DNA of 64,000 nt. It comes from a bacterium. GTDB taxonomy: Bacteria; Patescibacteriota; Microgenomatia; JAMCZE01. Position 1 is the stretch's first letter; each line of letters starts with the position of its first letter. The notes beneath the pieces were generated by a model that was not told the DNA's origin, did not search any database, and saw nothing but the letters and a program-made list of their open reading frames with translations. The stretch spans positions 71,484 to 135,483 of the forward strand of contig JAKBJL010000002.1 of the NCBI GenBank assembly GCA_021836035.1. Reading direction: 5' to 3'. Below are positions 17,680 to 62,593 of this stretch, piece after piece. The position numbers and the translations under genes were made by a program.

Positions 17680-17680
17680 A

Positions 17681-26725: not shown

Positions 26726-26726
26726 C

Positions 26727-32470: not shown

Positions 32471-32913
32471 TTACGCGGCAAAAATATTTTAAATATACCG
32501 TAAACCAACTGCCAAACAGCATAGATTATTACCAGGCCTTCGACAACATATAAAATAACGGCTTCCGCAGAGATATTATTAGGTATCTTAAATAAAGGAA
32601 GCAACGGAACTATCAGTAACACGGCCAAGAGCAACCAGCGTCTATTAAAGACCAGGTAAAATACACCCGCCAGAAAGAAGACCATGCCGATAAAAGAAAA
32701 AGCGCCGGTAATAAAATCCGGCGAGAGATAGGAGAGATAACAGCGCAAAATATTGTCCGGATAGAACAGGAATTTGTTGTGAAAAAGCCGCGTCAGAAAA
32801 GTATGGGCCCGGATACCGTCCGCGGTTTGCGCTTCCCATATTTGGTGGGGAACATCCAGCTTGATCCACTCCCAGTTGCAGGTAAAATCAGTACTCATAT
32901 ACCCGGAAAGCAA
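32467..32913 (-). CDS. Hypothetical small membrane protein (2-3 C-terminal TM helices)
   Basis: The 148-aa product has a soluble N-terminal half and a hydrophobic C-terminal half (IGMVFFLAGVFYLVF..LLLAVLLIVPLLPLF..AVILYVVEGLVIIYAVW). It couples to the downstream PMT_2 paralog by a 4-nt overlap. I recognise no family. Confidence 0.35.
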   Translation of the reverse strand: MLSGYMSTDFTCNWEWIKLDVPHQIWEAQTADGIRAHTFLTRLFHNKFLFYPDNILRCYLSYLSPDFITGAFSFIGMVFFLAGVFYLVFNRRWLLLAVLLIVPLLPLFKIPNNISAEAVILYVVEGLVIIYAVWQLVYGIFKIFLPRK

Positions 32914-37695: not shown

Positions 37696-37709
37696 AAGAT
37701 TTCCGCTGC

Positions 37710-39953
37710 CTACCAGCCCATATTATATTCTACTTTATGTTTCCCCGCGGGCACGATTAAACCGCGGAAATTATAATCGCTTAAATATATTTTGCTCTCT
37801 TTACCGTCAATCATTGCCTGCCAGCCGGGATAAAAACTATCTGTTAAAATAAGAAATGACTCGCCCGGACTCTGCGTAAATATTTCTATCCTGTTTGCGG
37901 AATAATAGCTGATCTCAGCGCGTCCGGCGGTAAATTCCCCCGCCGGCACCGCTTCTTCGATAACCGCGGTGTTTCTTAAATCAACGGTGAACATCTTTTC
38001 CAATACCGCCTGTTTTGAGCCGGCAGTTACGACACTACCGACCATGAATGCCCGGGGAAAGGCCCCGCTATCCTCATAAACTTTTGTATTTCCCTCAGAC
38101 ATTACCTCTTTTAGGTTTATATCGGACAGGGGCCCCAAAGATAAAAGATACCTGACGCCCAGAAGTTTGAGGAACGGGCTCCGATAATTTTTGGGAACTA
38201 TTATGCGGTTAAAGCCCCAGGGAGTATGGATATCGGCCCTGTTTCTTTCTGAAGCTGCCATCAGTTCTCCGTATCTTTTAAGATACAGCGGGTCGTAACC
38301 TCCGGGCATACTCAAGCCGTAAACAGAATTAAAATTAGGCGGAAAGATACGGTCATCAAGGGCTAATATTCTGCTATGATCACTTCCCGTATGCGTTTGC
38401 AGATATCGGGTAATTATAGTATCCGGATATAAGTAAGACCTGTCTGTGAACGGCGTATATTTAGTCCCAAACCTCAGTAAATCGAGCAATAAAATAAATA
38501 TCAAGCCGTACTTGGCAATTTGAGAAAGCAAACGGTTACGAACCGCAAACATGACGACCAACAGGCATAAAAATACGGAAAACGCGAAAAATAAGGCGGG
38601 GAAATAAAGATTTCTTTCGCTAATTAAAAAGTTTCCCGTCCGGTGGTTCAACACCCAAATCCACAGCGCGAGGATGGCCGTGCCCGGAATCGCCAGGGGG
38701 ACAAGGATCATTTTTAAGCGTTTTTTTAAGGTAAATTCGTGTCCTAAAAAATAATCTAACCCCAGCGATGCCAAAACGGCCAAGCTAAAGTCGACAATCA
38801 TGATAATTCTGGAAGGCTGGGCGGTAGAAATAAAAGGCAGGTTTAGCATATAGGGAAGTTTCGCCGGCAGTGTAGGAAGGGCCAGCAATAAAGCCGATAG
38901 ACCAACAACAGTATAATAAAATGTTTTGCGGTCCCGGCGAAAGATTACGGCGAAGATAGCAAAAACCAAAGGAAGCAAGCCGATATAGCCGACAAACTCC
39001 TGGTAATTCCAAACCCCAAAATAATTTAAAGTGGCTGGATTACCAAAGAAATCCGGGGCTACAAACTGAATTAAATTCTGCCATGGTAGAAACCAGTCGG
39101 GCCGCTGCCAATTAGCCTGATCGATATTGCGCGCTGATTGCAGGATAAATTGCAGGGTTGGTATCCATTGGACAGCGGTCAAAAATAAAAAGACCACGAA
39201 ACAAATAGCCAGGAGGGGAATTTTTCTCAGGCTCCCGGTAATCCGGACTTTGGCCAGTATATACAGAAAAGTAAAGGTAATGACATAAAAAGCGGGCTGT
39301 AAATAACCCGCCAATAAACTGGCCGACAAGGCAAAGACCAGTATTGCCGCCCACCTAAGGCTTTTCCCCCCCGCCATGATTTTATCGACAGTAAGGAGTA
39401 TCAGCGGAAGCCATAGGTATGCCTGCACCGTAGTATTCCAAACCAGCCAGGCAATAAAAAAACCGCTCCCGATAAAAACCAGGGAACCGAAAGAGGCGGA
39501 AAAGGGAGTAACACGCTGCTGGCGCAGATATAAATACATAAACACGCCTCCCATTAACATTTGTAAAAGAACCTGCCAACTCCAGGCGTCGGCAAATCTT
39601 AAAAATACATATAAAATATTTAGGGGGTAAAACGGGGCTGCCTGCATATTAGCCAGAAGCGGGGTTCCGGAGAAATTGTAAGGGTTCCAAAGCGGCAATT
39701 GCCCTTTTTTAAGGCTGTCCCAAGCAAGCAGCCGCCAGGGATACTGTTGTCTGACCGCATCGGTAATCTGAAAATTTTTAAACGGAACTCCGTTGGGAAA
39801 TTCACTCTGCCGGGAATCAATCCAGGGGTGATACATTCCCATAATTGTATCCGCGGGAATGGGTAACCTGCCCCGTAGGATAAACGGGGAGAAAAATAAC
39901 AGGATGAATAAGATCACAATACCAAAAGGGAAATTACGCTTAAACGTCTTCAT
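37710..39953 (-). CDS. YfhO-family GT-C membrane glycosyltransferase, paralog Y1
   Basis: The protein is 747 aa with about 12-14 helices. The N-terminal ...MGMYHPWIDSRQSEFPNGVPFK...LWNPYNFSGTPLLANMQAAPFYP and the C-terminal ...FYPGWQAMIDGKESKIYLSDYNFRGLIVPAGKHKVEYNMGW match what I recall of the YfhO signature. Confidence 0.6.
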   Translation of the reverse strand: MKTFKRNFPFGIVILFILLFFSPFILRGRLPIPADTIMGMYHPWIDSRQSEFPNGVPFKNFQITDAVRQQYPWRLLAWDSLKKGQLPLWNPYNFSGTPLLANMQAAPFYPLNILYVFLRFADAWSWQVLLQMLMGGVFMYLYLRQQRVTPFSASFGSLVFIGSGFFIAWLVWNTTVQAYLWLPLILLTVDKIMAGGKSLRWAAILVFALSASLLAGYLQPAFYVITFTFLYILAKVRITGSLRKIPLLAICFVVFLFLTAVQWIPTLQFILQSARNIDQANWQRPDWFLPWQNLIQFVAPDFFGNPATLNYFGVWNYQEFVGYIGLLPLVFAIFAVIFRRDRKTFYYTVVGLSALLLALPTLPAKLPYMLNLPFISTAQPSRIIMIVDFSLAVLASLGLDYFLGHEFTLKKRLKMILVPLAIPGTAILALWIWVLNHRTGNFLISERNLYFPALFFAFSVFLCLLVVMFAVRNRLLSQIAKYGLIFILLLDLLRFGTKYTPFTDRSYLYPDTIITRYLQTHTGSDHSRILALDDRIFPPNFNSVYGLSMPGGYDPLYLKRYGELMAASERNRADIHTPWGFNRIIVPKNYRSPFLKLLGVRYLLSLGPLSDINLKEVMSEGNTKVYEDSGAFPRAFMVGSVVTAGSKQAVLEKMFTVDLRNTAVIEEAVPAGEFTAGRAEISYYSANRIEIFTQSPGESFLILTDSFYPGWQAMIDGKESKIYLSDYNFRGLIVPAGKHKVEYNMGW

Positions 39954-41011
39954 AGCGCAAGCAGTTTCTCCAATTCCCCGAAGAATTTCTCTTTGCTAAA
40001 ATACCCGCTCCTTATGACTGCGCCTGAGGATAACTGCTGCCACAAATCGAAATCTTTAATAAGATTAAGGGTCTTCTCTTTTAATTCTTCCGGGGTTTTC
40101 CAAAGAAAACCGGACTTGCCGTCTTCAATTATTTCCAGTTGCCCCCCGCCGGCAAAACTTAAGGGAACACACCCGGCCGCCATGGCTTCCACAGTAGCGA
40201 TACCGAAATGTTCGGCTTTATCGGGGTATTTCTCCAAGTTCTCTCCATATCCTGCAGCGTGCCAGAATATTTTGGCTTTACTATAATATTCCTGTAAAAC
40301 CGGAAAAGCGCTATCGGCGATAATTTTTATAGGAAAGCCCGTGCTTTTTTTGCGGAGCCGGTCGATTTCCTTACGCGACCCCGCAGTAATCCCCCCGATA
40401 AGCACCAGCCGCCAGCCACGCAGTTTATTTTTATATAAATCCACAAATTCCCTAATCAGTATTTCCTGTTTTTTAGGATTTGCGGGGGCAAAAAACCGCC
40501 CGACAGCAAGAATGATATTTTCCTTAACCCCCGGCCGGAAAGACTCTACATCCACCGGCGGATAAATTACCCGGCTTTGTACATGGTAGCTTTCGTCAAT
40601 ATATTTCTTGGTAAAATAAGAATTACAAATCACCGTATTTATACGGCGCAGTTTTAGCCAATCCAGGATATTTACTCCCTTAGCGGGGATCGGCATCTGG
40701 AAATGAAGTATATTTTTGGCAGCGAAACTTAAGGGGATACTGCCGTCCGAGAGGAACAAAATCAGATCATATGGTCGGGTCCGGGATATCTTCTCACGGT
40801 AATTTCCCCTTTGAGCAAATACATTTTTAACGAATTTTAAACCCGTCAGGTCAAGATTAAAACGATCTTTGATTTGGGAAGTGCTTGCTTCCCCCTCCCC
40901 GAAAATATCTACTTCATCACCGCGGCGTAAAAAGAATTCCGCCGCCGTAAGCATGTACCTTTCGCCTCCCCCCATGGTGGCAACATAAGGAGTGAACAGC
41001 CCGACTTTCAT
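39950..41011 (-). CDS. Glycosyltransferase family 4
   Basis: MKVGLFTPYVATMGGGERYMLTAAEFF... at the N-terminus and ...KAEHFGIATVEAMAAGCVPLSFAGGGQLEII at the C-terminus. Confidence 0.8.
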   Translation of the reverse strand: MKVGLFTPYVATMGGGERYMLTAAEFFLRRGDEVDIFGEGEASTSQIKDRFNLDLTGLKFVKNVFAQRGNYREKISRTRPYDLILFLSDGSIPLSFAAKNILHFQMPIPAKGVNILDWLKLRRINTVICNSYFTKKYIDESYHVQSRVIYPPVDVESFRPGVKENIILAVGRFFAPANPKKQEILIREFVDLYKNKLRGWRLVLIGGITAGSRKEIDRLRKKSTGFPIKIIADSAFPVLQEYYSKAKIFWHAAGYGENLEKYPDKAEHFGIATVEAMAAGCVPLSFAGGGQLEIIEDGKSGFLWKTPEELKEKTLNLIKDFDLWQQLSSGAVIRSGYFSKEKFFGELEKLLAL

Positions 41012-41811
41012 ATTTCCGCCGCCAAGATTTTTTTATCAATATTTCTGTAAGTTTCCGCCAGCGGCTCTTTCCTTTGCAGCTCCCAGAGACGCACATAGAC
41101 GATAAAAAAGGAAAAAACCTGGAAAAGGCCGTCAAGCCATCCCTCGGTACCCTGTCGCCAGGCTTGGTATTTGATAAATCTTTGCCAAAATTCCGTAGCC
41201 ATTATCCGTAACAACCGCCACCAGGAAACGGGCGGATGGTTATTAGCAAAGCGCAATTTGGCTTCGTGATCGGAAAAATTAATGGTTTTAGCCATCATGG
41301 TATAAATATCCCGGTGCGTGAGATGATAAAGCGGCTTATAAAGCTCGCCTATCGGGCCATCCACCCGGGAAGTTTCATGTATCTCGCCGCTCCATCCTTT
41401 GAGCTTATCCTTTTTAAAGAGCCTGGTAAGATAATCCGGGTAACGGTCGCCGTAGCGCACTTCTTTTCCCAGGAAAAAATTTACCCGACGTAACTTATAA
41501 GCACAATATTGGGGGTTCTTCAATTCCTTTTGCATTTCCTCCCGCAACGTAGCTGATACCCGCTCGTCAGCGTCCAGATACAAAAGCCAGTCTCCCCCGG
41601 CTTTTTCTTTTCCCAGGTTATGGCGCTGGGAAAAATCAGTTGAGCTGCTGGGGTAAATTTTGTCGGTATATTTTCGCACGATGTTAAGAGTATCCGCATC
41701 TGCGCCGTTATCAATAACGATAATCTCGTTGGCCCATTTTACCGACTCGAGGGCTGCGGAAATATATTCCTTTTCTTCCGGCCAAAAAGTAAATAAAATT
41801 ACGGTTAACAT
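41008..41811 (-). CDS. Glycosyltransferase family 2, WaaE/KdtX-like (paralog 2 of 3)
   Basis: MLTVILFTFWPEEKEYISAALESVKWANEIIVIDNGADADT...WLLYLDADERVS.... Confidence 0.7.
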   Translation of the reverse strand: MLTVILFTFWPEEKEYISAALESVKWANEIIVIDNGADADTLNIVRKYTDKIYPSSSTDFSQRHNLGKEKAGGDWLLYLDADERVSATLREEMQKELKNPQYCAYKLRRVNFFLGKEVRYGDRYPDYLTRLFKKDKLKGWSGEIHETSRVDGPIGELYKPLYHLTHRDIYTMMAKTINFSDHEAKLRFANNHPPVSWWRLLRIMATEFWQRFIKYQAWRQGTEGWLDGLFQVFSFFIVYVRLWELQRKEPLAETYRNIDKKILAAEI

Positions 41812-43535
41812 TAATTTTCCCTCTCAAAAACCAGAGCGCTTTCGTTCTCAAAAACGATTTTAAACCTTCCGGCTTCTACCATTTTAGCAAAATCGATCGC
41901 TTCGGGCCTCAGGAAGAACAGATAATCATAATTTGCCGACGGCGGAGTAACCGCCCCTACTTGTTGGTTAAAATCCTCTCCGGCCCCGATAGTCCGGCGT
42001 TCGGCAAGAGAGCTAAACCATAGATACCTTCTGTTGAAATCATTCGGGGGTAAATAAAATACTGCCGACGGGGGGGTCTTAGTTTTAACATAATCCACGG
42101 CCGCTAAGACCTTCCGGGGGATGACAATCGGTTCACGGTTGGGTTGCCATCTCGAGGATAATTCTTCCCGATCAGACCATAAGACAAATATTACTAAAAG
42201 TCCCAGCAGCAGAGCTTTGCTTTTCCCGGTCCCTACAGAAATAATTTTAAACACGGCCACCGTGAACATAATCCCCATAAGGGTCGTAAAATAGGGCGTA
42301 AACTGAACCACGTCATAGGCTTTTTTCATCTGGTTAAAAAACAAAGGGATTAGCAAAGAAATGAAACCGGCACATAAAAGAAACGCTTCCGCAGCGGTAA
42401 TCTTGGTAGTTTTTTTAAGGATCGCCACCAGAGATATGATTCCCATGAGCCTTATCCCCAAACTACCTACCAGATAAAAAAGGAGAGCGTAGCTATATAA
42501 AATAATTAAGCGCCAATAGCTGTGGATCAGAAGATATTGATCCCGGGCAATTAAAAATCGGGGCGTATTCAACCGGTCAAGATCAATCATCATTTTATCC
42601 AGGAGCCAAAAGGGTGCGAATTGTAAACCGGCTACTCCCCTGTCTATCGTGAGGAAAAACCATATCCCCATAACTATCCCTCCAAAAATCCCGAACCAGA
42701 GGATTTTTTGATCCCTGCGGAAAATTAATTGCCAGACCCCGGCCAATAATACTGCCGGCAGCATAACAATCCCCCCATAGGCTTTTATGCCGAAGGATAA
42801 TCCCAGAAGCAGCGCCATTAAGACCAAATTGCCTACTCTTCCGGTTTCCTGGTATTTGCTCAACAGGAGAAAAATAACCAGAAACAGTATTAATCCCACC
42901 AGGGCCTGGGGATTAACCATCATTCCCAATAACTGATCGGTCATAAAAAGATTGCTGGCTGAGTGATTGGGGTGCAAACCGAAGCGGTACCAAAATGACG
43001 GATCCAGGGTTCCGAAACCGGTTCCGAAGATGGTAAAAAATATCGCCGTCGCGGCACAAAGCGTGTTCCCCGTCAGCCTTTTAGTCGTAAAATAAACGGC
43101 TGCCGCCAGGCTAACGGATATAACCGCCGGAATAATCCGAAAATATAAGTCCAGCACGGAAAAGGGGGAAACCTTGCTTATTAAAGCCACCCCGGCGTCA
43201 AAGAGATAGTGGTAATTTTTAAGAGGTGTCGTTCCGCCAGCGGCAAAGTTGGTCGGCGGAAAACGGTGCCGCATTTCCGCAATTAAAGACAGATGAACGT
43301 TGCTGTCGTGGAAAAGGACATAACCGTTGAACAGCAAATTTCCTTCTTGGTCTCTTAATCCGCTTCTGGCTATCTCAGAGCCCTGGGCCCAAACCGACAG
43401 CAAGGTAAAAAGGACGGCGATAATAAAAACCATGATTGGCTTGGGACGAGAAGGAAATTTAAAAGCCGATCTTTTGGGAGACGACATAATAGGGGCGGTG
43501 TTTGACTTCATCATAAATTCTGCCGATATATTCAC
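41811..43535 (-). CDS. Polytopic membrane protein, putative GT-C (GtrC-like partner of adjacent GtrB-like GT2)
   Basis: The ORF is 574 aa with more than 10 helices and a ...FHDSNVHLSLIAEMRHRFPPTNFAAGG... loop. The true start is probably an internal Met (for example 43433), because the annotated 5' end overlaps the upstream GT2 by 77 nt. Confidence 0.4.
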   Translation of the reverse strand: MNISAEFMMKSNTAPIMSSPKRSAFKFPSRPKPIMVFIIAVLFTLLSVWAQGSEIARSGLRDQEGNLLFNGYVLFHDSNVHLSLIAEMRHRFPPTNFAAGGTTPLKNYHYLFDAGVALISKVSPFSVLDLYFRIIPAVISVSLAAAVYFTTKRLTGNTLCAATAIFFTIFGTGFGTLDPSFWYRFGLHPNHSASNLFMTDQLLGMMVNPQALVGLILFLVIFLLLSKYQETGRVGNLVLMALLLGLSFGIKAYGGIVMLPAVLLAGVWQLIFRRDQKILWFGIFGGIVMGIWFFLTIDRGVAGLQFAPFWLLDKMMIDLDRLNTPRFLIARDQYLLIHSYWRLIILYSYALLFYLVGSLGIRLMGIISLVAILKKTTKITAAEAFLLCAGFISLLIPLFFNQMKKAYDVVQFTPYFTTLMGIMFTVAVFKIISVGTGKSKALLLGLLVIFVLWSDREELSSRWQPNREPIVIPRKVLAAVDYVKTKTPPSAVFYLPPNDFNRRYLWFSSLAERRTIGAGEDFNQQVGAVTPPSANYDYLFFLRPEAIDFAKMVEAGRFKIVFENESALVFEREN

Positions 43536-44388
43536 CGATTATTCCCAAGATAATCAATTGGCCACCCCCGACAATCAAAATGGAAAGCATGGGTCCGGAC
43601 CAACCCAAAATAGCGGTATGGCTGATAAACTTCTGATAGAAAACATCCAGAATTCCGGCTATAGCCCCCAGGGAAATAAGTAAGCCGAAGATAGTCGCCG
43701 CCCGCAGCGGTACGTAAGAAAAAGAAAACAGGGCATCAAACCCCATAGCAAGCAATTTCCGAAAGGTCTGCGGCGGTTTACCGGCAAACCGCTCCTGTTT
43801 CTCATAAACCAATTCCGTCTGGCGAAAACCGACCCATGCCCGCAGCCCCGCAACATAGCGGTTGCGCTCGGAGAGGGATACTAATATGTCCACCACGGGG
43901 CGGCGCATTACGGAAAAGGCTCCCACATTGGCGGGCATTTTGTATGAAGCCAGTCTGTCCATTAACAGATAGAAGGAACGGAAAAGGAACATTCTTAAGA
44001 GCGGGTCCCTGCGTTTATCATGGGTAGCCAAAACTACATCATAACCTTCGTTCAGTTTGGCAAGCAAGTTGGGAATAAACTCCGGAGCATCCTGAAGATC
44101 TCCGTCCATTAAAACCACTGTTTCTCCGCTGGTATTGTCCAGCGCCGCCGTAACCGCGGCTTCGTGACCGAAATTCCGGGAAAGAGAAACCACCCTGACA
44201 TTTTTGTCTCGTTCATGAATACTTTCCAGTTTAGCCAGCGTTGTATCCCGGCTGCCATCATCTACCGCTACGATTTCATAGCTTTTGCCCAAATCCTTAA
44301 GCACGACACTTACGCGGCGGTAAAACTCCTCCACGTTCTGTTCCTCATTATAAAAAGGCACCGCCACCGACAAGCTTAAATTGTTCAT
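43459..44388 (-). CDS. GT2 polyprenyl-phosphate glycosyltransferase, GtrB/ArnC type with C-terminal TM helices
   Basis: SVAVPFYNEEQNVEEF...IVAVDDGSRDTT...VVLMDGDLQDAPEFIP... matches the GtrB pattern. Two C-terminal hydrophobic helices (ATIFGLLISLGAIAGIL, LSILIVGGGQLIILGIIGEYI) are typical of bactoprenol-phosphate glucosyltransferases. Confidence 0.8.
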   Translation of the reverse strand: MNNLSLSVAVPFYNEEQNVEEFYRRVSVVLKDLGKSYEIVAVDDGSRDTTLAKLESIHERDKNVRVVSLSRNFGHEAAVTAALDNTSGETVVLMDGDLQDAPEFIPNLLAKLNEGYDVVLATHDKRRDPLLRMFLFRSFYLLMDRLASYKMPANVGAFSVMRRPVVDILVSLSERNRYVAGLRAWVGFRQTELVYEKQERFAGKPPQTFRKLLAMGFDALFSFSYVPLRAATIFGLLISLGAIAGILDVFYQKFISHTAILGWSGPMLSILIVGGGQLIILGIIGEYIGRIYDEVKHRPYYVVSQKIGF

Positions 44389-45281
44389 AAAAGCGGCAGT
44401 TTATTTCTTAATTTATAGTACAACTTTTTTAGGGGATTCGTGCTTTTAACCATTAGCCAGTAACGGAAGTCATGGGCGGTCTTTTTCGCCTCTATGGTAA
44501 TCTGGTCCATAAAATCGCCGCTATCGTAGGCGGTAAACCCCTGCATTTCCCATAGCTTAGCAAAAACAATTAAACGATTGGATGCTTGTAATAAAGAAAG
44601 AACCAAGCCATGCAGACCGTCTAAATAACCCTCCCAAAAGAAAAAACGCTTGAAGAACTCATCGGTGGGAAATTTAATAGCGTCCGACCAGACAACCCTT
44701 TCTCCCTTTTCCTTTAAATAGCGGGCATCATCCGTAGTATAGCGGTTCAGGCGGTCTACATACTGGAAGACGGAACTATAATGATTATGAACCAGGTCGC
44801 TTTTCAGGACTCCCGGATTCCCGACTATTTCTATCTGCTCATGAACCGATTTACAGGGATATTTACCCTTCCCCTTTTTAAACAATTTTATCTGGTAATC
44901 GGGGTACCATCCGGAATGTTCTATCCATTTACCGAAAATGTAATTTTTCCGGGGAATCTGATATCCGAAAGATTGCCCGTTACCGCTTATCACCTTCCTG
45001 ATTTCCTGCTCCAGATCCGCCGTAACCACTTCGTCCGCGTCCAGCTGTAAAATCCATTCCCCGCTACAGGCATCAACCGCTTTCTGCTTCGTCCGGTGGA
45101 ACATTTCCTGATGTTCCGTAATAAACACCTTATCGGTAAATTTTTTGGCGATAGCTACAGTTCCGTCCGAAGAGTTTTCGTCAAACAGCACAACTTCATC
45201 CGCCCATTTGACTGATGCCAGGCAGTCGGCAATATTATTTTCTTCATTGCGGGCGGCAATCGCCACCGATAGTTTCTTCAT
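44385..45281 (-). CDS. Glycosyltransferase family 2, WaaE/KdtX-like (paralog 3 of 3)
   Basis: KLSVAIAARNEENNIADCLASVKWADEVVLFDENSSDGT...WILQLDADEVVTADL.... Confidence 0.7.
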   Translation of the reverse strand: MKKLSVAIAARNEENNIADCLASVKWADEVVLFDENSSDGTVAIAKKFTDKVFITEHQEMFHRTKQKAVDACSGEWILQLDADEVVTADLEQEIRKVISGNGQSFGYQIPRKNYIFGKWIEHSGWYPDYQIKLFKKGKGKYPCKSVHEQIEIVGNPGVLKSDLVHNHYSSVFQYVDRLNRYTTDDARYLKEKGERVVWSDAIKFPTDEFFKRFFFWEGYLDGLHGLVLSLLQASNRLIVFAKLWEMQGFTAYDSGDFMDQITIEAKKTAHDFRYWLMVKSTNPLKKLYYKLRNKLPLL

Positions 45282-46729
45282 TTCCGGTATGCCTGATAAA
45301 TCAGATTAAAATTCTCGCGTATTTTTCTTCCGTCCAGTAACCAAATCGCCGATAAGTAAATTATAGCACCGGTAAGGCCCGCCAAAATGAAAGTGAGGTA
45401 GGTAACCGGCAAAAAGCGCCATAATCCCCAAAGCACCGCAGCCATAATAAGGCTGGCCAGGGCAGGTTTAAGAACGTTCCCCAGAAAATTAAACGTGACC
45501 ACCCGTTTGACCAGATAGATAGTCAGAAATATGGTTAAACTGACTACCAGGGGGGCGACGGCTACCCCGTTATACCCGTAGAGGGAAACAAAAAAGATGG
45601 TAAGCGGCCAGATAAGCAATATCCATAAAACCATCAGCCCCAGGGTTTTGCGGACATTGCCGGTCGCGTCTAAAGCATTAACTAAAATCCCGGAAAGCGA
45701 GGAAACCGCCGCCCCGGCCAGAAAAAAATAAAATAGCGGCAAACCCGGAGCCCATTTCTGGTATTTGGGTAAAAGGAAAAGCAGCTTGTCAATCAATACC
45801 GCCATGAGCGTCAGAACCGGAAACATGATCAGGCTCACCCCATATAAAGAGCGTTCAATCCCCGATTGTAATTTTCCCGCCTGATCCTGGACCCGCGCAT
45901 AGGTCGGAAAAGTAACTTTGGTTACGCTGCTGACAATAAAATTAAAAGGGCTATATGCCCACCTTTGCCACCAGCCGACATAACCCAATCCGACGGTTCC
46001 TACGGCAGGCAAACCCGAGAGAAAAACTACCAAAAGATTATCCTTAATCAAAGCCAGGCCGTTTTTGGCTTGATACATAATTCCGAAAGATAATAACCGC
46101 CGGGCCCGGCCCCAAGACAAACCGAAAGACACTTTCCAGGGCGACAGCAAATAATAAAGAGGCAAGCCTGCCAGGGCGGAAATAAGGTAAGCCCAGGAGT
46201 ATGCGGCCACCTGAAACTTATTATAAGCCAAAATCACGACGATCACGCTGAAAACAAATTGCTCCACGAGAGACGGAATAATCTGGGTTTCAAAAGCGAT
46301 TTTCCTCTCCAGGAGTATTGAGGGAATAGATTTCAGGGAAGAAATGAATAAAACCAGGAGAAAGACATAGTAAAGATTAATGCCGTCAGTTCCCAGCCGC
46401 GCAAAGGAAGCAATAAAAGGAGTTAAAAGCCATCCCACGGCGATGACCAGGAAAACAAGAATTTCCTGGAGCGTAAAGACGGTCCGGAGATCATTTTCTT
46501 CCAGGTTTTCGTGTTTCTGCACCAGCGCGGCTCCCAAACCCAGATCAACGAAAAAATTAAAGAAGGGGTAAATGGCGGAGACGGCAACATAAGTACCGAA
46601 GGCCTGCTGGGACAAAAACAATCCCAGAGGAATAAGCGTCAGCATGGTAATGACCTGGTTGATCATCTGCCGGCTTGTCAGGGCGACAATACTCCGGATG
46701 GTTTTATTTTTTATTTCTTCTGATTCCAT
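45278..46729 (-). CDS. wzx: Wzx-type oligosaccharide/polysaccharide flippase (MOP superfamily)
   Basis: The protein is 483 aa with about 12-14 helices. The N-terminal ...RSIVALTSRQMINQVITMLTLIPLGLFLSQQAFGTYVAVSAIYPFFNFFVDLGLGAALVQ... matches the Polysacc_synt family pattern. Confidence 0.7.
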   Translation of the reverse strand: MESEEIKNKTIRSIVALTSRQMINQVITMLTLIPLGLFLSQQAFGTYVAVSAIYPFFNFFVDLGLGAALVQKHENLEENDLRTVFTLQEILVFLVIAVGWLLTPFIASFARLGTDGINLYYVFLLVLFISSLKSIPSILLERKIAFETQIIPSLVEQFVFSVIVVILAYNKFQVAAYSWAYLISALAGLPLYYLLSPWKVSFGLSWGRARRLLSFGIMYQAKNGLALIKDNLLVVFLSGLPAVGTVGLGYVGWWQRWAYSPFNFIVSSVTKVTFPTYARVQDQAGKLQSGIERSLYGVSLIMFPVLTLMAVLIDKLLFLLPKYQKWAPGLPLFYFFLAGAAVSSLSGILVNALDATGNVRKTLGLMVLWILLIWPLTIFFVSLYGYNGVAVAPLVVSLTIFLTIYLVKRVVTFNFLGNVLKPALASLIMAAVLWGLWRFLPVTYLTFILAGLTGAIIYLSAIWLLDGRKIRENFNLIYQAYRK

Positions 46730-48443
46730 AAATTAATACCGCTAACCCTCCCAGGGAAATAAGAGACAGCGTATTCCCCGCAGTTCTTACCGGGGTATTT
46801 GTAAATTTCCCGGCAATCCCATGGTTCCCCGGGGGGACCATAACCGAGATCAGTTTATATTGATTGGCGTCGTTTATCGCTGCCGGCTTATTATCGATCC
46901 AAACTTTCCAACCGGGGAAATCAGCAAGATGGAACTGTAACTGCGCCCCGTAGGCAGAATTTCCGCTCAGCAAAAAACGATCCGGGGCGAATTGGGAGCT
47001 GCTTGGGGTAAAATCGCCGGATAAAATCCGGAATTTTTCGTTCCACGAAGGCGAAACAACCTCGTTTTCATTGATATCCACCAATACGGTTCCGAGGGGG
47101 CTAATTTTGGTAGCAATTCCAAAAGGCAGATACTCAAAAGAGCTGTTGCTGACGTGCCATTTAACCTGTTGGTCGGTTAGGAGACTGTTATCGGTGGCGG
47201 CGGTCAAATATTTTTGGGGTACAAAGAGTTTAGCGTTGTAAAAAAGTAGTCCGGCCAATACTACTATGGCAGTCAGTATCTTGAGATAAAACTTATTGAG
47301 CAGGAGAAACAGGGATCCGGCAAGCAAGGAGGCAAATAAGGCGGTAAACTCTAAAAAACGCCAGGGAAACTGCAGGTACCACAAGGGAGGAAGGTTATCC
47401 CAAATAAAGCCGGAATAAGCGGTGGTCATCCAGGCAGAAAAAATCAACAGCAAAAAGAGAGAAAACAGCAATCCGGCGGCTTTTTTCCGCTTTCTTAACC
47501 ACAACCAGATAGCGGCGGGTAAGGAAAGAAAAGCCAAAATTAAATGCAGCTTGCCGATTTTAAAAGACATCCCGTCCAGGCAGCCCGGCCCGGATCCCCC
47601 GTAACCCCAAAGGCTGTTCCAGAGTTGTTCAGGACAGACAAAATGAATCCGATAAGAAGCCAGGTTTTTAATCAGCAATTGGTCCACTAGGGTATCTTGT
47701 TTTTCGGTAAGCGCGGGCAGCCAAAAAAAAGCCGTCAGCGAGAAAGTAATAAAAGTTAAAAGCAAATAGCTAAAAGCAAATAGCTTGATGTTCCCTTTAC
47801 CGTAAATCAAATATATAAGTACATACCAGAGGGAAAATACACCAAAAAAGGGCAGGAATACTAAATTGTGGGTAATCATGAGAAGTGCAAAAAATATTCC
47901 CGTTAATACGGCCCATTGCCACTTCCCTTCTTTAATTAGCTTATAGGAAGTTAAAAGAATTAAGGGGAGCCAGACAAAGGAGAAGAGTTCCGCCAGGGCG
48001 CCGCGGACGTAGGCGTCCACGGCGTGGTAAGGCGCGTAAAGATAAAACAACGCGGCAACTCCTCCTCCTATCCGACCGAAAAGTTCTTTCGCCAGCAGGT
48101 ACATTGAGACCACCGATCCGGCGAGAGCCAGGAACCAGACAATTTTTGTGGAGTCCAAAAATCCCGTTCCCAAAAACAGGTGTACGGCCTCTCCCAAGTA
48201 GTAAACCAAAGGCGGGTAAAAATTAAAGAGGGGATAACCAAGCCCGAAGCCGAGATCCGGTACCCAACGAACCGGGAATTGGCCGGCAGAGAGCGATTTG
48301 TCCAGCTGCGCGAGACGCGCTACCTGTTGGTCATCATGCATGACAAAATAGCCCTGATGCACCAATGGCTGCCAGGCAAAATAACTTAATACCAAAACTG
48401 CCAATAAAATCCCCAGGCCGCGCTTGTTTAATAGGATATTCAC
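46704..48443 (-). CDS. Polytopic membrane protein, short YfhO-related family, paralog S2
   Basis: ...FVMHDDQQVARLAQLDKSLSAGQFPVRWVPDLGFGLGYPLFNFYPPLVYYLGE... and the C-terminal ...FPGWKVWIDNKPAA...TNTPVRTAGNTLSLISLGGLAVLIYG are shared with 21237..22919 and 48440..49984. Confidence 0.5.
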   Translation of the reverse strand: MNILLNKRGLGILLAVLVLSYFAWQPLVHQGYFVMHDDQQVARLAQLDKSLSAGQFPVRWVPDLGFGLGYPLFNFYPPLVYYLGEAVHLFLGTGFLDSTKIVWFLALAGSVVSMYLLAKELFGRIGGGVAALFYLYAPYHAVDAYVRGALAELFSFVWLPLILLTSYKLIKEGKWQWAVLTGIFFALLMITHNLVFLPFFGVFSLWYVLIYLIYGKGNIKLFAFSYLLLTFITFSLTAFFWLPALTEKQDTLVDQLLIKNLASYRIHFVCPEQLWNSLWGYGGSGPGCLDGMSFKIGKLHLILAFLSLPAAIWLWLRKRKKAAGLLFSLFLLLIFSAWMTTAYSGFIWDNLPPLWYLQFPWRFLEFTALFASLLAGSLFLLLNKFYLKILTAIVVLAGLLFYNAKLFVPQKYLTAATDNSLLTDQQVKWHVSNSSFEYLPFGIATKISPLGTVLVDINENEVVSPSWNEKFRILSGDFTPSSSQFAPDRFLLSGNSAYGAQLQFHLADFPGWKVWIDNKPAAINDANQYKLISVMVPPGNHGIAGKFTNTPVRTAGNTLSLISLGGLAVLIYGIRRNKK

Positions 48444-49984
48444 TGCTCGTCTTTAGCTAACTTCTTATTGTAGGCTTTCAGAAGAAAAAATAATAATCCC
48501 CCCAGGCTTAATAAACTTACTAAATCAGCCAATTGTCTTACGGGAGTTTCCCGGAAACGGGCGTTTATCTCATGTTCTCCCACCGGTATACTAATATCCA
48601 GAAACCCCTCGTTTTCATAACGGATATTTACCGGTGCTCCGTCGACTAAAACCTGCCAGCCGGGAAAATAAATCCTGTTAATCCGCAATTTTAAAGGGGT
48701 ATCAGCAATTACCTGTCGATCGGAAACAATAGTCCCCATGCCCGATAAGATCGTTAATTTACCCGGCGGCAAGGTTAAAAATTCATTCTTCACCCAGCGA
48801 CTCAGGTATTCATTCTTAACCGTGGTCGTATCGTCTTTTCCGGTATAGTAAGTTTCCGGATAAAAGATTTTATCGATTTTATAGCTTTGAAGCCCGTTGA
48901 TTATGATAATACCCATGACAAGCAACACTGCCGGCCATTTTCCCCATCGCTTTATTACCGCACCGGCAAGAACCGATCCCAGAAAAACCGTGACCGAAAG
49001 AAAGCGCCAGGGAAACTGGACCAGCCGGGGTAAAAATCCGTATCGCCAAACAGGAGTAAATAACGGCAGGGCGGGGACAAGCGATAATATTGTCAGCGCA
49101 ATTAAAATAAATAAAGATCGGTTATGGTTCTTAACGGCGATCAGCAATGCCGCAAGGACCGCGAATGGCAAAGCAGGACCCAATAAATAATTAAGATTAT
49201 CCGGGTAAAGAAAATAATTTTTAAACTCGGCAATCTGCACACTTGCGGCCCGGGTATATTGCAGATCATAAAATGCCGGCAGCCAGAAAAACGTTGTTAA
49301 ACCGACGCCAAGCGCCAGGGAAACAACCTCCAGGACAAATCCGGAAACATCCCGGTCTTTTTTAGTTAACGGCTGGAGGACAAAAAGAACGATCAGCGGA
49401 GTGAAAATAAAAGCCAGGACATTATGCGAAGTTATTAAGGCGGCGTAAAAAAAAGCGCCCAAAGCGATATCGACCCCGCGGTGTTTTTCCCTGACGCGAA
49501 AGAGGTAATAAATAATCAACGGGAGAAAAATAAAAGCCAGCGCTTCACCCAACGACCCGCGTTTATAAACGTCAAATACCCGGTAGGGAGCGTAGGTATA
49601 AAGAACGGCCGAAACCAACCCGGCTTTTACACCCCATTTGGAAGCAACCAGACGGTACATGGCAAAAGCAGAGAGCAGAAAGCTTAAGGCAAAAAGCAAC
49701 TTTATCGAATCCATAAAGGAAAAACCCGCCAGATGGATTAATTCACCGATATAAAAAGGCAACGGATAGAGAAAATCCAATACGGGATAGCCATACCCGT
49801 GGTTGATCGTTTCCAGAAAACGCACGGGAAACTGCCCGGTTTTGAGGGTTTCATGAAACGCAAAAAGACGGGTAATCATAAATCCACCGTCATCCGTCCG
49901 AAAAAAACCCGCGGTAAGAATCGGCTGGATAAGCGGAAGCGTAAACAGGAAAAGCAACAGTAAGGGCATCAACTTCTTGATCAT
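48440..49984 (-). CDS. Polytopic membrane protein, short YfhO-related family, paralog S3
   Basis: ...FFRTDDGGFMITRLFAFHETLKTGQFPVRFLETINHGYGYPVLDFLYPLPFYIGE... and the C-terminal ...YFPGWQVLVDGAPV...RFRETPVRQLADLVSLLSLGGLLFFLL. Confidence 0.5.
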   Translation of the reverse strand: MIKKLMPLLLLFLFTLPLIQPILTAGFFRTDDGGFMITRLFAFHETLKTGQFPVRFLETINHGYGYPVLDFLYPLPFYIGELIHLAGFSFMDSIKLLFALSFLLSAFAMYRLVASKWGVKAGLVSAVLYTYAPYRVFDVYKRGSLGEALAFIFLPLIIYYLFRVREKHRGVDIALGAFFYAALITSHNVLAFIFTPLIVLFVLQPLTKKDRDVSGFVLEVVSLALGVGLTTFFWLPAFYDLQYTRAASVQIAEFKNYFLYPDNLNYLLGPALPFAVLAALLIAVKNHNRSLFILIALTILSLVPALPLFTPVWRYGFLPRLVQFPWRFLSVTVFLGSVLAGAVIKRWGKWPAVLLVMGIIIINGLQSYKIDKIFYPETYYTGKDDTTTVKNEYLSRWVKNEFLTLPPGKLTILSGMGTIVSDRQVIADTPLKLRINRIYFPGWQVLVDGAPVNIRYENEGFLDISIPVGEHEINARFRETPVRQLADLVSLLSLGGLLFFLLKAYNKKLAKDEQ

Positions 49985-52353
49985 TTATTTAGCCGGCTCC
50001 TTTTTTGCCGGAATATTTCCCAAAGGATTCCTCCCACGATGACTAACAAACCCAGGGCAGTCAGCAACCCGCCGTAACGGAAACTTTGAGGGTCATAATT
50101 AAATTCGACGGTATGTTTTCCCGCCGGTACGGGTACAGCCCGGAAAGCATAATCCGCCCGATAAATTTTAGTTCCCCGGCCGTCAATCATCGCCTGCCAG
50201 CCGGGAAAATAAGTGTCGGAGAGAAATAGCAATTTGGGCTTGTCCGCCCTGGTTTCAATTACCACTTTATCGGGTTGGTATTTAATAATCTTCACCGAGG
50301 CTGCGCCTCCTTCTGAGGGGACCAGGCCTGGTTCTTCTTCCAGAATCAAAGTGGAACGCAGATTTGCACCCGGACGATAAATTGCTGCGAGAATTTTTCC
50401 CGGATCCTTCTCTACCAGGTAGTTGTCGGCCAGAAAAGCCCGCGGCAGGACAGTTTTGCGCTCGTAGGCTTTCCATTTAAAATTCTGCCAAAAAAGCGCA
50501 TATTTCTGCGGAGAAAATTTCGCCGTTTCCGGTTCCCAATTGGATTGGGGAAAATCATTCTTATCTAAAATATATTTCACTCCCAAAAGATCAAAAAGTC
50601 GGTTGCGGTAAGCATTATCCTGCGAGGGGAAAACGGCATCTGAACGCAAGACCGACCGGGGGAACTTTCCGTCAGCAGCGGAAGCTAACAATTCTCCGTA
50701 GCGCTTGATATAGAGCGAATCCCATCCCTCAGGGGAATAAACAGCGAAATAAGTCGTAAAATTATTATCGATGTAAGCCGTACCGAAGCCGTAAAAACGG
50801 TCTAAACCCGCTTTCTGCTGTAAAAAATTCGTGACCGGATGATGGGGAAAAACAAATTTCTCCGGCGCAAAGGGCTGGTATTTATTAAAAAAATAAGCAT
50901 ACTCTAACACGGCCAGGGTCGTCAAAACTCCGGCGGATAGCCAAATTATTTTCCGGCGGATTTTAACCGCTAGAAACGCTAAAGCCGTTATCACAAAAGT
51001 AGCGCTGGGCAGAAGCAAATTATTACGGGCGATGCGGAATTCCCAGGTGTGGTGCCCCAAAACTACGACCCACAACAGCAAATATGCCAAGCCGACTGCG
51101 GCTATCGGAAAAATAATATTTCTGTCCGTCTTTTGCTCTGTCCACCAACAATGGAAACCGTATGCCGCAAGGACCACCGCCGAGAATTGGAAAATAAAGA
51201 GGCTGCGCGCCGGTACCCCGGTGGCTAAAATAGGAATACGCAGAAGATGCGGCAGATAAACCAGCGGCGCCAAAGCGAAAAGTAAGCCGACAACTCCCAG
51301 GATAAAGAACAATTTCATCTCCTTGACCGCTAAACTCCGGACCGCCCCGATCAGGGTGAAAACAAAGGCGACAACTCCGAAATAAACCTGGAAATCACCG
51401 TACTGCTTGCCCCAAAAATTTCCGCTCGCCGGATTGCCGAAAAAATCCGGAGCCAGAATAGTAATTAAATTAGACCAGGGGAGGATAAAAGGGGCGAAAA
51501 GCTGCCGTGTTGCTTCCCCTTCCCGGGCGGAATGCAGATATATTTCCAGAGTCGGCAGCAACTGGATTGCCCCGATAAGAAAGCCGCATCCCAGACAAAA
51601 AGCAATTTCTCTAAGCGTCAGTTTCCGCAAGAACATATAAGGGACGGCTATTATCAATAAATAGATATAGGTTTGGGCATGCCCTCCGAAAATGGCAAAA
51701 GCGAATAAAAGCGGCAGGAAAAGCAAATAGATTAAGCGGCGTTTGTTACTGTATTGATTGACCACCCAGAGAATCAGCGGTAGAAAAAGCACGACCTGGC
51801 TGATGATCAGTTGCTCGTGCCATACCACCAGGTAGCCGATATTGGCCATGGCAATGCCCCCGAAAACCGCCGCGGGGCGGGAAAGTTTCAGGGAACGGAA
51901 AAAAAGATAAGTAAACACCGTCAGCAAAAAAGGAAGAGATATAACCAGAGCAATCCAGGCCTTAAGGGTAGGTAAGCATAAGAAAAGGACATTGCCCGGA
52001 AAGAAGATCGAAGATTGCAGGTCGGCAATTAAAGGATAGCCGGAAAAATTATAAGGATCCCAAAGCGGCCAGCGGAAATTTCTGATTTGTTCAAAAGCGA
52101 AAACCTTCCAGGGATACATCTGGCGGATCACATCCGCGGCAATTACCGCTTTATGGGTTGTCCAGGAATTGTACCCGGCGAACCCTCCGGAATTCCAGGG
52201 AAAGAAAAAGGAAACCAGCAAATCTCCGGGAAAAGGAAGCAAACCTTTAAAATAAAACTGCCAGAATACGGCCAGATGGGCAAAAAGAATTATCAGTCCG
52301 ACCAGAACTATCTGGTAGCGGCGAACCAGCTTTTTAATAACAGCCATAGCCAT
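49981..52353 (-). CDS. YfhO-family GT-C membrane glycosyltransferase, paralog Y2
   Basis: The protein is 790 aa. ...LLPFPGDLLVSFFFPWNSGGFAGYNSWTTHK...LWDPYNFSGYPLIADLQSSIFFPGN... and the C-terminal ...YFPGWQAMIDGRGTKIYRADYAFRAVPVPAGKHTVEFNYDPQSFRYGG... match the family. Confidence 0.65.
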   Translation of the reverse strand: MAMAVIKKLVRRYQIVLVGLIILFAHLAVFWQFYFKGLLPFPGDLLVSFFFPWNSGGFAGYNSWTTHKAVIAADVIRQMYPWKVFAFEQIRNFRWPLWDPYNFSGYPLIADLQSSIFFPGNVLFLCLPTLKAWIALVISLPFLLTVFTYLFFRSLKLSRPAAVFGGIAMANIGYLVVWHEQLIISQVVLFLPLILWVVNQYSNKRRLIYLLFLPLLFAFAIFGGHAQTYIYLLIIAVPYMFLRKLTLREIAFCLGCGFLIGAIQLLPTLEIYLHSAREGEATRQLFAPFILPWSNLITILAPDFFGNPASGNFWGKQYGDFQVYFGVVAFVFTLIGAVRSLAVKEMKLFFILGVVGLLFALAPLVYLPHLLRIPILATGVPARSLFIFQFSAVVLAAYGFHCWWTEQKTDRNIIFPIAAVGLAYLLLWVVVLGHHTWEFRIARNNLLLPSATFVITALAFLAVKIRRKIIWLSAGVLTTLAVLEYAYFFNKYQPFAPEKFVFPHHPVTNFLQQKAGLDRFYGFGTAYIDNNFTTYFAVYSPEGWDSLYIKRYGELLASAADGKFPRSVLRSDAVFPSQDNAYRNRLFDLLGVKYILDKNDFPQSNWEPETAKFSPQKYALFWQNFKWKAYERKTVLPRAFLADNYLVEKDPGKILAAIYRPGANLRSTLILEEEPGLVPSEGGAASVKIIKYQPDKVVIETRADKPKLLFLSDTYFPGWQAMIDGRGTKIYRADYAFRAVPVPAGKHTVEFNYDPQSFRYGGLLTALGLLVIVGGILWEIFRQKRSRLNK

Positions 52354-62581: not shown

Positions 62582-62593
62582 TAGGCTATTCTA

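Follow-up and report, generated by a model that had tools for sequence, protein, structure and literature searches.

The flippase encoded in the Gtr operon, GtrA, is a small protein of about 120 amino acids with four transmembrane (TM) helices. Other described systems employ flippases of the Wzx or MATE type. In the model of the lactococcal PSP pathway (WpsA/WpsB, WpsC-F, WpsG and WpsH/WpsJ), WpsA and WpsB make GlcNAc-P-C55, which is extended by cytoplasmic glycosyltransferases (GTs); the Wzx-type protein WpsG flips the product, and the GT-C enzymes WpsH and WpsJ polymerize and transfer it (PMC10821137). In the GacI/GacJ/GacK/GacL system of S. pyogenes, GacL adds a single GlcNAc, and GacI requires the DUF2304 protein GacJ (bioRxiv 10.1101/180810; PMC8035078). 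The pentofuranose system of Citrobacter youngae comprises a PRPP-dependent synthase, a MATE flippase and the biochemically validated GT136 (PMC11127046).

We analyzed a 64,000-nt stretch of DNA (hereafter, the window) from a Microgenomates-type genome (Patescibacteria/CPR). Patescibacteria have tiny genomes, yet more than 50 kb here is spent on about 20 GT-C enzymes; almost nothing is known of the envelope glycans of these bacteria. The subject of this study, a polytopic protein that we call X, is encoded mid-way in one long, dense minus-strand operon. The original prediction had grouped X (ORF 41811..43535) with a GtrB-like enzyme (43459..44388) and a flippase (45278..46729) in a three-component, Gtr-like module. 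All three ORFs were confirmed, each on the minus strand, but the module proved to be a different one: two GT-C enzymes, a MOP-superfamily flippase and three soluble enzymes, of which two are GT2s and one is a GT4. A plain Gtr annotation of the locus is attractive but over-simple, and it is corrected here.

Gene content of the block

The genes of the block, all on the minus strand, overlap by 1–56 nt throughout. Upstream lies a PTPS_related-type GT-C (46704..48443; 579 aa, polytopic), which matches Pfam PF10131 (2.3e-7) and, weakly, an NCBIfam archaeal STT3 model (1.2e-3). Its 3' end overlaps by 26 nt the start of the flippase gene (45278..46729; 483 aa). The predicted identity of the latter as a Wzx-type flippase with 14 TM helices was upheld as to type: the protein is a MOP-superfamily (Wzx/PST-type) flippase, as evidenced by matches to Polysacc_synt_3 (6.6e-42), Polysacc_synt (1.6e-18) and the NCBIfam MOP flippase PRK10459 (6.9e-24, residues 21–464), and also to WzxC and TuaB models. 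The helix number is less exact, at about 13–14 hydrophobic stretches in a crude hydropathy count.

Two soluble GT2s of the GmaR/SunS-like subgroup, both devoid of TM helices, surround the GtrB-like gene and X. The first (GT2_298; 44385..45281, 298 aa; Pfam GT2 1.7e-17) sits between the flippase and the GtrB-like gene and was not named in the original prediction; in the PDB it comes closest to GmaR (2.2e-16) and SunS (1.7e-5). The second (GT2_267; 41008..41811, 267 aa; Pfam GT2 3.2e-9) follows X and also matches GmaR in the PDB (2.6e-12). Next come a soluble GT4 with the GT-B fold (39950..41011, 353 aa; Glycos_transf_1 5.6e-19, Glyco_transf_4 1.4e-9) and a YfhO-family GT-C (37710..39953, 747 aa; Pfam YfhO 4.6e-19, with a weak PgfM2 match). 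This last gene ends the block in the close subclade; it stands after the GT4 in L003, L005, L008, L010 and L011.

The 309-aa product of 43459..44388 is, as predicted, a genuine GtrB/ArnC-type polyprenyl-phosphate glycosyltransferase. It has a GT-A domain (Pfam GT2, 4e-32) with the motif MDGDLQDAPEF, followed by two C-terminal TM helices at residues ~226–250 and ~267–285. Over its full length it matches NCBIfam PgfS (2.4e-76) and ArnC (1.6e-49), both under the equivalog cut-offs, and in the PDB it matches Synechocystis GtrB (5EKP, 3.2e-76, residues 4–306) and ArnC (6e-50).

The block is part of a larger array that comprises some 20 GT-C genes, 11 of them of the PMT_2/ArnT type, and four or more candidate synthases of lipid-phosphate sugars. 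A search covering about 56 of the 58 window ORFs of at least 120 aa yielded no GtrA-family Pfam match; the only small, 3-TM minus-strand ORFs in the window encode a DUF2304 protein, two genes downstream of a PpgS-like GT2, and one unassigned 148-aa protein. Searches of the window and of 87 loci by single-sequence phmmer, a method that may miss a divergent WecA, turned up no priming phosphoglycosyltransferase (WecA- or WcaJ-like); as a positive control, E. coli WzxC matched 65 ORFs in related loci. The gene for a priming enzyme might lie in another part of the genome. We found no enrichment of promoter-like or terminator-like sites.

Start codon of X

A 77-nt overlap between X and the GtrB-like gene had been proposed. 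That figure holds for the longest ORF, which begins at GTG 43535 and encodes 574 aa (the numbering used for residues below). There are, however, in-frame ATGs at 43514 (56-nt overlap), 43487 (29 nt) and 43433 (the candidate raised originally, which leaves a gap of 25 nt and no overlap). The start is probably 43514, since public gene calls use it (P0001, 567 aa; 41811..43514), the resulting 56-nt overlap recurs in three to four relatives (L003, L008, L012 and L088), and residues 1–32 of the longer ORF are disordered in the structural model. In L003, the start that gives this overlap is the sole canonical one ahead of TM1.

Fold and conserved residues of X

X had been described as a protein of unrecognized family, and indeed it matches nothing in Pfam or NCBIfam, nor any PDB sequence even when the family profile is used at E<=10. 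X is a GT-C-fold glycosyltransferase, as anticipated from its GtrC-like position, and does not have a Wzy, ligase or transporter fold. It displays the features of the GT-C_A class, namely a polytopic helical membrane domain, an outer loop or domain after TM1, and similarity to solved GT-C structures. There are about 11 TM helices, with the N-terminus inside and the C-terminus outside, and an alpha/beta outer domain of about 110 aa at the C-terminus, after the membrane part.

Across 46 X-family sequences, down to 22% identity, nine positions are invariant and 26 are near-invariant. The first outer loop, between TM1 (33–56) and TM2 (127–155), carries the invariant residues D77, H81 and N107-Y108-H109 and the near-invariant D113 (in at least 90% of the 46 sequences); K251 and W310 are also invariant. 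D77 and D113 would thus supply the conserved acidic residue expected in the first outer loop of a GT-C enzyme. The motifs of the outer loops are HDxxVHLSL, NYHYLxD, KAYGG and PFW. Because the invariant polar residues all fall in predicted outer loops, chiefly the one after TM1, X is most likely catalytic, with a putative outward-facing active site. We considered whether X might instead be a non-catalytic GT-C-like scaffold (in the manner of PIG-U/GAB1) or a degenerate paralogue. This is very improbable: the conserved positions cluster on the outward side, which in GT-C enzymes holds the active site, and the family is large (at least 1000 sequence clusters, mostly from Patescibacteria) and under clear constraint.

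The position of X, adjoining a Wzx flippase and soluble GTs, is the one in which a Wzy would be expected. It is nevertheless exceedingly unlikely that X is a transporter, or a polymerase or ligase of the Wzy or WaaL type, as this is contradicted by the GT-C fold. When X was considered as a Wzy or WaaL protein, neither a Wzy_C-type profile match nor a WaaL/SEDS-like fold was found. Polymerase activity on a GT-C fold is a separate matter and falls under the mechanism that we favor below.

In profile comparisons, homology to X could be detected in one family only, the PMT_2/ArnT-type enzymes (PF13231; hhalign, 92.5%; colinear over X residues 87–494), and just one of the 46 members touches Pfam PMT (E 1e-3). 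The X family had been proposed as a new GtrC-like family. Its novelty stands, at the sequence level and within a known kind of enzyme. The likeness to GtrC fared less well in searches of phage sequences and viral models: tblastn found nothing similar to X in 50,697 phage records, and the best Foldseek match among viral predicted structures (BFVD) was weak (E 2.4e-3, TM 0.35).

Conservation of the neighborhood of X

To characterize the genomic context of X, we used 46 X-family loci that are flanked on either side by 5 kb or more of sequence. The flippase is present in 42 and adjoins X in 34. GT2_298 occurs in 41/46 loci, the PTPS-type GT-C in 37/46, GT2_267 in 35/46 and the GT4 in 34/46. The conserved module therefore consists of the PTPS_related-type GT-C, the MOP/Wzx flippase, X, the two GmaR/SunS-like GT2s and the GT4, and this module is also present in a TM6 genome (L052). 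In one protein (P0107, 1639 aa), a MOP domain is fused to an X domain. Association with GtrB-like genes, which the original prediction had proposed to check, was not general: the membrane-anchored enzyme is encoded in only five of the 46 loci and adjoins X in two. Adjacency of the two genes is confined to the close subclade (L003, L008, L011, L012 and L088). Of the relatives of the GtrB-like enzyme encoded in 80 metagenomic loci, only the closest (67% identity) has an X-family neighbor. In L039, as in the window, a membrane-anchored GtrB-like gene stands among soluble GT genes, directly after GT2_298. The constant partner of X is a Wzx-type flippase with three soluble glycosyltransferases, not a GtrB-like enzyme.

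These data bear on a Gtr-like decoration reaction, in which the GtrB-like enzyme would make a polyprenyl-P-hexose, the MOP protein would flip it, as has been proposed for GacK, and X would transfer this one sugar to a polymer at the surface or to a flipped lipid-linked intermediate. The GT-C fold of X is consistent with this reaction, as is its homology to PMT_2/ArnT-type enzymes, which use monophosphate donors. Proposals exist for the export of lipid-P-monosaccharides by flippases of the Wzx type and by those of the MATE type (PMC8035078, PMC11127046). The adjacency of the two genes, with the 56-nt overlap kept in the window and in the four relatives named above, implies translational coupling and fits a direct donor relationship from GtrB to X. 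If soluble enzymes of ~255 aa and GT2_233-type genes are included, a GtrB-type GT2 of any sort lies within 8 kb of X in 19/46 loci. However, 41/46 loci, among them L009 (43% identity) and L010 (36%), have no membrane-anchored GtrB, and such a reaction leaves the flippase and the three soluble GTs unexplained as conserved partners. The gene for X belongs to a conserved core and does not vary in the manner of serotype genes. Equally, the GtrB product may be used by the YfhO-family GT-C that is encoded four genes downstream; the best NCBIfam match of the GtrB-like enzyme, PgfS, partners the YfhO-like PgfM1/2. We thus regard Gtr-like decoration as possible but doubtful.

Proposed mechanism

We give about even chances to a mechanism in which X and/or the PTPS-type GT-C transfer or polymerize a flipped, lipid-linked glycan in a Wzx-dependent, six-gene module. 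The soluble GTs would assemble a short glycan on polyprenyl phosphate at the inner membrane face; in the window's subclade, priming would probably fall to the GtrB-like enzyme, like that by WpsA/GacI in lactococci. The MOP protein would flip the lipid-linked glycan, and X and/or the PTPS-type GT-C would then carry out en bloc transfer or polymerization onto an extracytoplasmic acceptor. The product may be decorated by the roughly 20 other GT-Cs of the array, drawing on lipid-phosphate sugars from several nearby GtrB/PpgS/AglJ-like synthases. Donor, acceptor, step order and the division of labor among the GT-Cs are inferred. Three observations sit less easily with this mechanism: X lacks WWDYG, the hallmark of oligosaccharyltransferases (OSTs); the substrates of GmaR and SunS, the nearest solved relatives of the soluble GT2s, are proteins or peptides rather than lipid-linked sugars; and X is coupled to the GtrB-like gene in the window and close relatives.

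A protein acceptor is conceivable. X might be an OST-like glycosylase of S-layer or pilin proteins, resembling PglB/AglB in function but lying outside GT66. We consider this unlikely. Even WWD is absent from the sequence of X and from the family consensus, X has no DK or MI motif, none of the 46 members matches an STT3 model in Pfam or NCBIfam, and the C-terminal domain is short. The outer domain of long family members weakly matches DUF3863 (E ~1e-3), a carbohydrate-esterase-like domain; this match is a hint that the acceptor is a polysaccharide and not a protein.

A broader form of the favored mechanism is tentative. The X family as a whole may comprise en-bloc transferases or polymerases of a Wzx-dependent polyprenyl mono- or diphosphate pathway that has no Wzy, WaaL or LCP-type step, nearest in structure to OSTs and common to most Microgenomates. 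If so, it would constitute a CPR-specific, OST-like route to a surface glycan or glycoprotein layer in ultra-small bacteria. In any case, a large unannotated family is now tied to the GT-C fold and is a candidate new CAZy GT family, and the flippase with its fixed set of soluble GTs around X offers a testable core module for surface-glycan assembly in CPR bacteria.

Comparison with known systems

The locus does not represent a new type of system. A Wzx-type flippase had been thought unusual for a Gtr-like system, but GacK and WpsG are of this type and a MATE protein accompanies GT136 (PMC8035078, PMC10821137, PMC11127046); the use of such flippases was already published. Like the phage GtrA-GtrB-GtrC systems, which glucosylate the O-antigen in Shigella and Salmonella, the block has a full-length GtrB-type match with a polytopic GT-C gene immediately downstream. 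Unlike them, it has at least eight genes and neither GtrA nor a prophage context, and X differs from a serotype-specific GtrC accessory in its conservation.

With respect to STT3/AglB/PglB (GT66) and DPY19, X has no sequence-level similarity, a much smaller C-terminal domain and 11 rather than 13 predicted TM helices. It falls under every Pfam threshold, and its outer-loop motifs differ from the DE and KPP motifs of PMT_2/ArnT-type proteins (GT39/GT83-like). The C. youngae system resembles the block in combining a synthase of lipid-phosphate sugars with a flippase of the MOP superfamily and a GT-C unlike earlier GT families; it differs in its PRPP-dependent synthase, its proteobacterial O-antigen context and the biochemical validation of its GT136.

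Gac- and Wps-type systems have in common a synthase for the lipid-P-sugar, a flippase of the Wzx family and a GT-C transferase; here, too, these three are encoded, in one overlapping gene run. The block departs from GacI/GacJ in that the window's DUF2304 gene is 25 kb away. It departs from Wps in that its GT2 has its own TM helices and no GacJ/WpsB partner, its soluble GT2s are GmaR/SunS-like, no rhamnan genes were seen, and most X-family loci have no nearby GtrB-type gene. X is likened to WpsH/WpsJ by its GT-C fold. Like Wps, the block combines a GtrB/GacI-type GT2 that would prime polyprenyl monophosphate, soluble GTs, a Wzx-type flippase and two GT-C-fold membrane enzymes as proposed polymerases and transferases of the glycan, with no priming phosphoglycosyltransferase. 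Among the systems compared, the lactococcal Wps/streptococcal Gac scheme is the closest analogue of the module of X.

Organization of the gene block

All four open reading frames placed by the original prediction, which proposed a Gtr-like module of a Wzx flippase, a GtrB-like GT2 and a GtrC-like membrane partner (here termed X), were found at their positions on the minus strand. They lie inside an almost unbroken co-directional gene run that spans roughly 63.9 to 7.4 kb. The window sequence is identical to that of DAHXMT010000003.1 (assembly GCA_027371575.1), and its proteins have named relatives in MAGs of Gottesmanbacteria, Shapirobacteria, Daviesbacteria and other Microgenomates/Patescibacteria. 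Adjacent genes of the block overlap by 1–56 nt (minus-strand junctions 48443/48440, 46729/46704, 45281/45278, 44388/44385, 43514/43459, 41811/41811, 41011/41008 and 39953/39950), and promoter-like and terminator-like motifs at 37000..50500 were not enriched relative to shuffled sequence. On these two grounds, the genes are best regarded as a single polycistronic unit.

The GtrB-like gene (43459..44388; 309 aa) was correctly described: its product has a Pfam GT2 match, the motif MDGDLQDAPEF and two hydrophobic helices at the C-terminus. The NCBIfam models PgfS (2.4e-76) and ArnC (1.6e-49) align with it end to end, as do the solved structures of Synechocystis GtrB (5EKP, 3.2e-76) and ArnC (6e-50). 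Both NCBIfam scores fall below the equivalog cut-offs; the protein is thus a relative rather than an orthologue. The Wzx-type assignment of the flippase (45278..46729; 483 aa) was likewise borne out. Pfam and NCBIfam identify it as a Polysacc_synt_3/MOP-family protein with approximately 13–14 transmembrane (TM) helices by crude hydropathy, and an E. coli WzxC query detects its homologues in related loci.

Where does X begin? The predicted 77-nt overlap with the GtrB-like gene holds for the longest reading frame (41811..43535; 574 aa) and fails for starts at the in-frame ATGs at 43514, 43487 and 43433. In public gene calls X starts at 43514 (567 aa), the resulting 56-nt overlap recurs in three related loci (L003, L008 and L012), and in L003 this ATG is the sole canonical start before TM1. 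Residues 1–32 of the long form are disordered in the AlphaFold2 (AF2) model. Conserved codons of GtrB (IYDEV) give rise to the ATG at 43514, and the conservation of this ATG alone is therefore no proof of its use. The “MMK...” N-termini common to several homologues were set aside as a sign of a conserved start, as they may mirror the conserved IYDEVK codons at the C-terminus of GtrB in another frame.

X represents a new family with a predicted GT-C fold

In agreement with the original description, X matches no Pfam or NCBIfam family, and its family profile hit no PDB sequence, even at E ≤ 10. None of 54 relatives from a word-indexed search carried a Pfam domain. An exhaustive profile search retrieved 3271 clusters at E ≤ 1e-3 (1011 at E ≤ 1e-30). 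Across 46 aligned members, Pfam yielded a single signal: DUF6798, which matched the C-terminal domain of 17 of them weakly and below threshold (best 4.6e-4) and on which we found nothing relevant in the literature. The family comes in three sizes: ~560 aa, ~650 aa with added N-terminal TM helices, and ~1140 aa, the last with a signal anchor, an outer domain of ~460 aa and added TM helices ahead of the X domain. In these long forms, the outer domain has a weak DUF3863 match (E about 1e-3), and neither it nor the N-terminal halves of the 1140-aa members showed a relationship to any local GT-C profile. Many Daviesbacteria-type loci (L014–L019, L025, L029 and others) carry tandem X-family genes, one of them ~1140 aa; L019:4163-7588 and the proteins P0059 and P0072 exemplify these tandem or long forms.

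The AF2 model is confident (pLDDT 91.9, pTM 0.91). In it, TM1 leads into a structured loop of ~70 residues, there are about 11 TM helices in all, and the chain closes with an alpha/beta C-terminal domain of ~110 aa. G59, D77, H81, L84, N107, Y108, H109, K251 and W310 are invariant in the 46-sequence alignment, with 26 further near-invariant positions; if the basic N-terminus lies inside, we infer from a map of secondary structure that all of the invariant polar residues would be on the outer face. In Foldseek, the top 18 entries were OST and DPY19 (E 2e-9 to 1e-6), followed, after a thousand-fold gap in E, by Emb and AftD; all transporter hits had E > 0.1 and TM-scores close to 0.1. The transporter, Wzy or ligase fold that would have contradicted the original prediction thus did not emerge. 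Profile-profile comparison, for which alignments of the neighbouring gene families were used, gave a colinear match of X residues 87–494 to the PMT_2-type GT-Cs (92.5% probability, E 4.7e-7; MOP control, 0.2%). X is therefore predicted to be a divergent GT-C_A-type enzyme. An OST-like, protein-glycosylating role for it is possible; the GT66 motifs are absent from X, which argues against such a role.

The flippase, not the GtrB-like enzyme, is the conserved partner of X

If X were a GtrC, its homologues would be expected next to GtrB-like genes. We assembled 80 genome loci and several metagenome loci, assigned their ORFs to the best-matching window protein by BLASTP, and counted neighbours in the 46 loci whose X homologue is flanked by 5 kb or more on both sides. 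The MOP flippase was present in 42 of 46, lying within 300 nt of the X-family gene in 34. Corresponding counts were 41 and 10 for the 298-aa-type GT2 (44385..45281 in the window), 37 and 3 for the PTPS_related-type GT-C (46704..48443), 35 and 4 for the 267-aa-type GT2 (41008..41811), and 34 and 0 for the GT4 (39950..41011). By contrast with the expected constant adjacency, a membrane-anchored GtrB-like GT2 occurred in only five loci and adjoined X in two. A soluble ~255-aa GT2 with its best match to the GtrB-like protein was present in eight (none within 300 nt), and any GtrB-type GT2 (membrane-anchored, soluble ~255-aa or GT2_233-type) in 19.

In gene order, Shapirobacteria-type loci usually read (GT2)-PTPS-MOP-X-GT2-GT2-GT2-GT4 and Daviesbacteria-type loci PTPS-MOP-X(1140)-X(660)-PMT-GT2-GT2-GT4; MOP-GT2-GtrB-X-GT2-GT4-YfhO was confined to a close subclade (L003, L005, L008, L011, L012 and L088). 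L009 and L010, two loci at 43% and 36% identity, keep this block but lack its GtrB gene. Among 80 metagenomic loci with GtrB-like relatives (40–67% identity), X was a neighbour in one, the closest. The conserved partner of the X family is the flippase with three soluble glycosyltransferases, and the GtrB-like gene is a lineage-specific addition. One library protein, P0107 (1639 aa), joins a MOP/Polysacc_synt_3 domain (50–333) to a long X form (X domain 1069–1633); either a genuine flippase-transferase fusion or the loss of a stop codon could explain it.

A link to phage GtrC proteins was also considered and dropped: tblastn of phage records with X found nothing similar, and viral predicted structures gave no good match. 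The family is essentially confined to Patescibacteria. A complete TM6 (Dependentiae) genome (CP011212.1) carries the MOP/X/PTPS/GT2/GT2/GT4 module too, as does a contig assigned to an archaeal bin (labelled Bathyarchaeia), a pattern suggestive of horizontal transfer or mis-binning. Many further loci bear the title “uncultured Gammaproteobacteria” yet are Microgenomates-like in gene content.

A large GT-C array surrounds the block

Pfam and NCBIfam scans covered nearly all large ORFs of the window. They revealed about 20 recognisable GT-C genes (11 PMT/PMT_2-type, three PTPS_related-type, four YfhO-type, one MptA/B-like and X) in one co-directional run of more than 50 kb (7390..63895, minus strand), which takes up a very large part of a genome of CPR size. 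Three polytopic proteins without a family (22916..24370, 26727..27965 and 62594..63895, all minus strand), several GT4s and GT2s, and methyltransferases are also encoded. The scanned ORFs contain one MOP flippase and no GtrA, which was likewise absent from 87 X-family loci. A 148-aa minus-strand ORF between PMT_2-type genes (32467..32913) was rejected as a GtrA-like flippase: its N-terminal half is soluble, it has three C-terminal TM helices, and it matches no Pfam or NCBIfam family. L001 and L003 have called genes of like size (143 and 134 aa) in this position.

The window holds at least four candidate lipid-phosphate-sugar synthases, including the GtrB-like protein. A 229-aa GT2 (17681..18370, minus strand) matches PpgS, a polyprenyl-phospho-GalNAc synthase, over its full length (2.2e-46). 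Two genes downstream is a 117-aa DUF2304 protein of the GacJ/Rv3632 family with three TM helices (16568..16921, minus strand; PF10066, 1.7e-26); from their sequences, the two look like a second, GacI/GacJ-type synthase pair. Two short soluble minus-strand GT2s (36045..36746 and 24367..25140) resemble archaeal AglJ/dolichyl-phosphate hexose transferases (2.9e-25 and 1.1e-17) and may belong to further synthase/GT-C sets; the former is directly upstream of three PMT_2-type GT-C genes. Given these several synthases and some 20 GT-Cs, it is solely gene position that pairs the GtrB-like enzyme specifically with X. The YfhO-type GT-C four genes downstream (37710..39953) would be an equally conventional partner, since CsbB/YfhO and PgfS/PgfM provide the precedent (PMC8035078).

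The left end (1..10000) has a GC content of 0.37–0.39, vs. 0.45–0.50 in the remainder, and is possibly of different origin. It is a separate ABC-dependent glycan locus, with a Wzm/Wzt-type exporter (1533..3613, minus strand; ABC2_membrane, ABC_tran + Wzt_C), a sugar epimerase/dehydratase, GT4s and one GT2.

Possible pathway and comparison with known systems

The original prediction had called a Wzx-type protein an unusual flippase choice. It is not new: multi-component GT-C systems with the Wzx-type GacK or WpsG, or with a MATE flippase, are published (PMC8035078, PMC10821137, PMC11127046), and GT136 exemplifies a new GT-C family founded on this kind of protein (PMC11127046). X belongs to a large family that is new in sequence; its fold and its kind of pathway are both known ones. 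We found no relevant paper on GT-Cs in CPR/Patescibacteria; the X family, through its steady association with a flippase, offers a good way into the otherwise uncharted envelope glycobiology of these bacteria.

What might the block do? In a simple Gtr scheme, a single sugar would pass from GtrB via the MOP protein to X. We regard this scheme as the less likely reading; it keeps some weight because the translational coupling of GtrB and X is conserved in the close subclade. The set conserved across loci is the flippase, the two GT-Cs on its flanks and three soluble glycosyltransferases, with no Wzy, WaaL or priming phosphoglycosyltransferase. For the last, E. coli WecA and WcaJ were searched against all window and locus ORFs, and no WecA/WbaP-type enzyme was found in the window or the 87 X-family loci (the WzxC control worked). 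In some lineages (the window and L039), a GtrB-type gene is inserted among the soluble glycosyltransferase genes.

At roughly even chances, we favour a Wzx-dependent, lipid-linked glycan route. In the window lineage, the GtrB-like enzyme would prime the lipid-linked glycan, the MOP/Wzx flippase would flip it, and X and/or the PTPS-type GT-C would transfer the flipped product. The main weakness of this model is the similarity of the soluble GT2s to GmaR and SunS, both of which glycosylate proteins or peptides. We prefer it because the conserved gene set most resembles lactococcal PSP synthesis, the published system most like the X block. There, the GacI/GacJ homologues WpsA/WpsB produce GlcNAc-P-C55, which cytoplasmic glycosyltransferases lengthen while it is on the monophosphate carrier; the Wzx-type WpsG flips the product, and of two GT-C-fold enzymes, WpsH polymerises it and WpsJ transfers it to rhamnan (PMC10821137).
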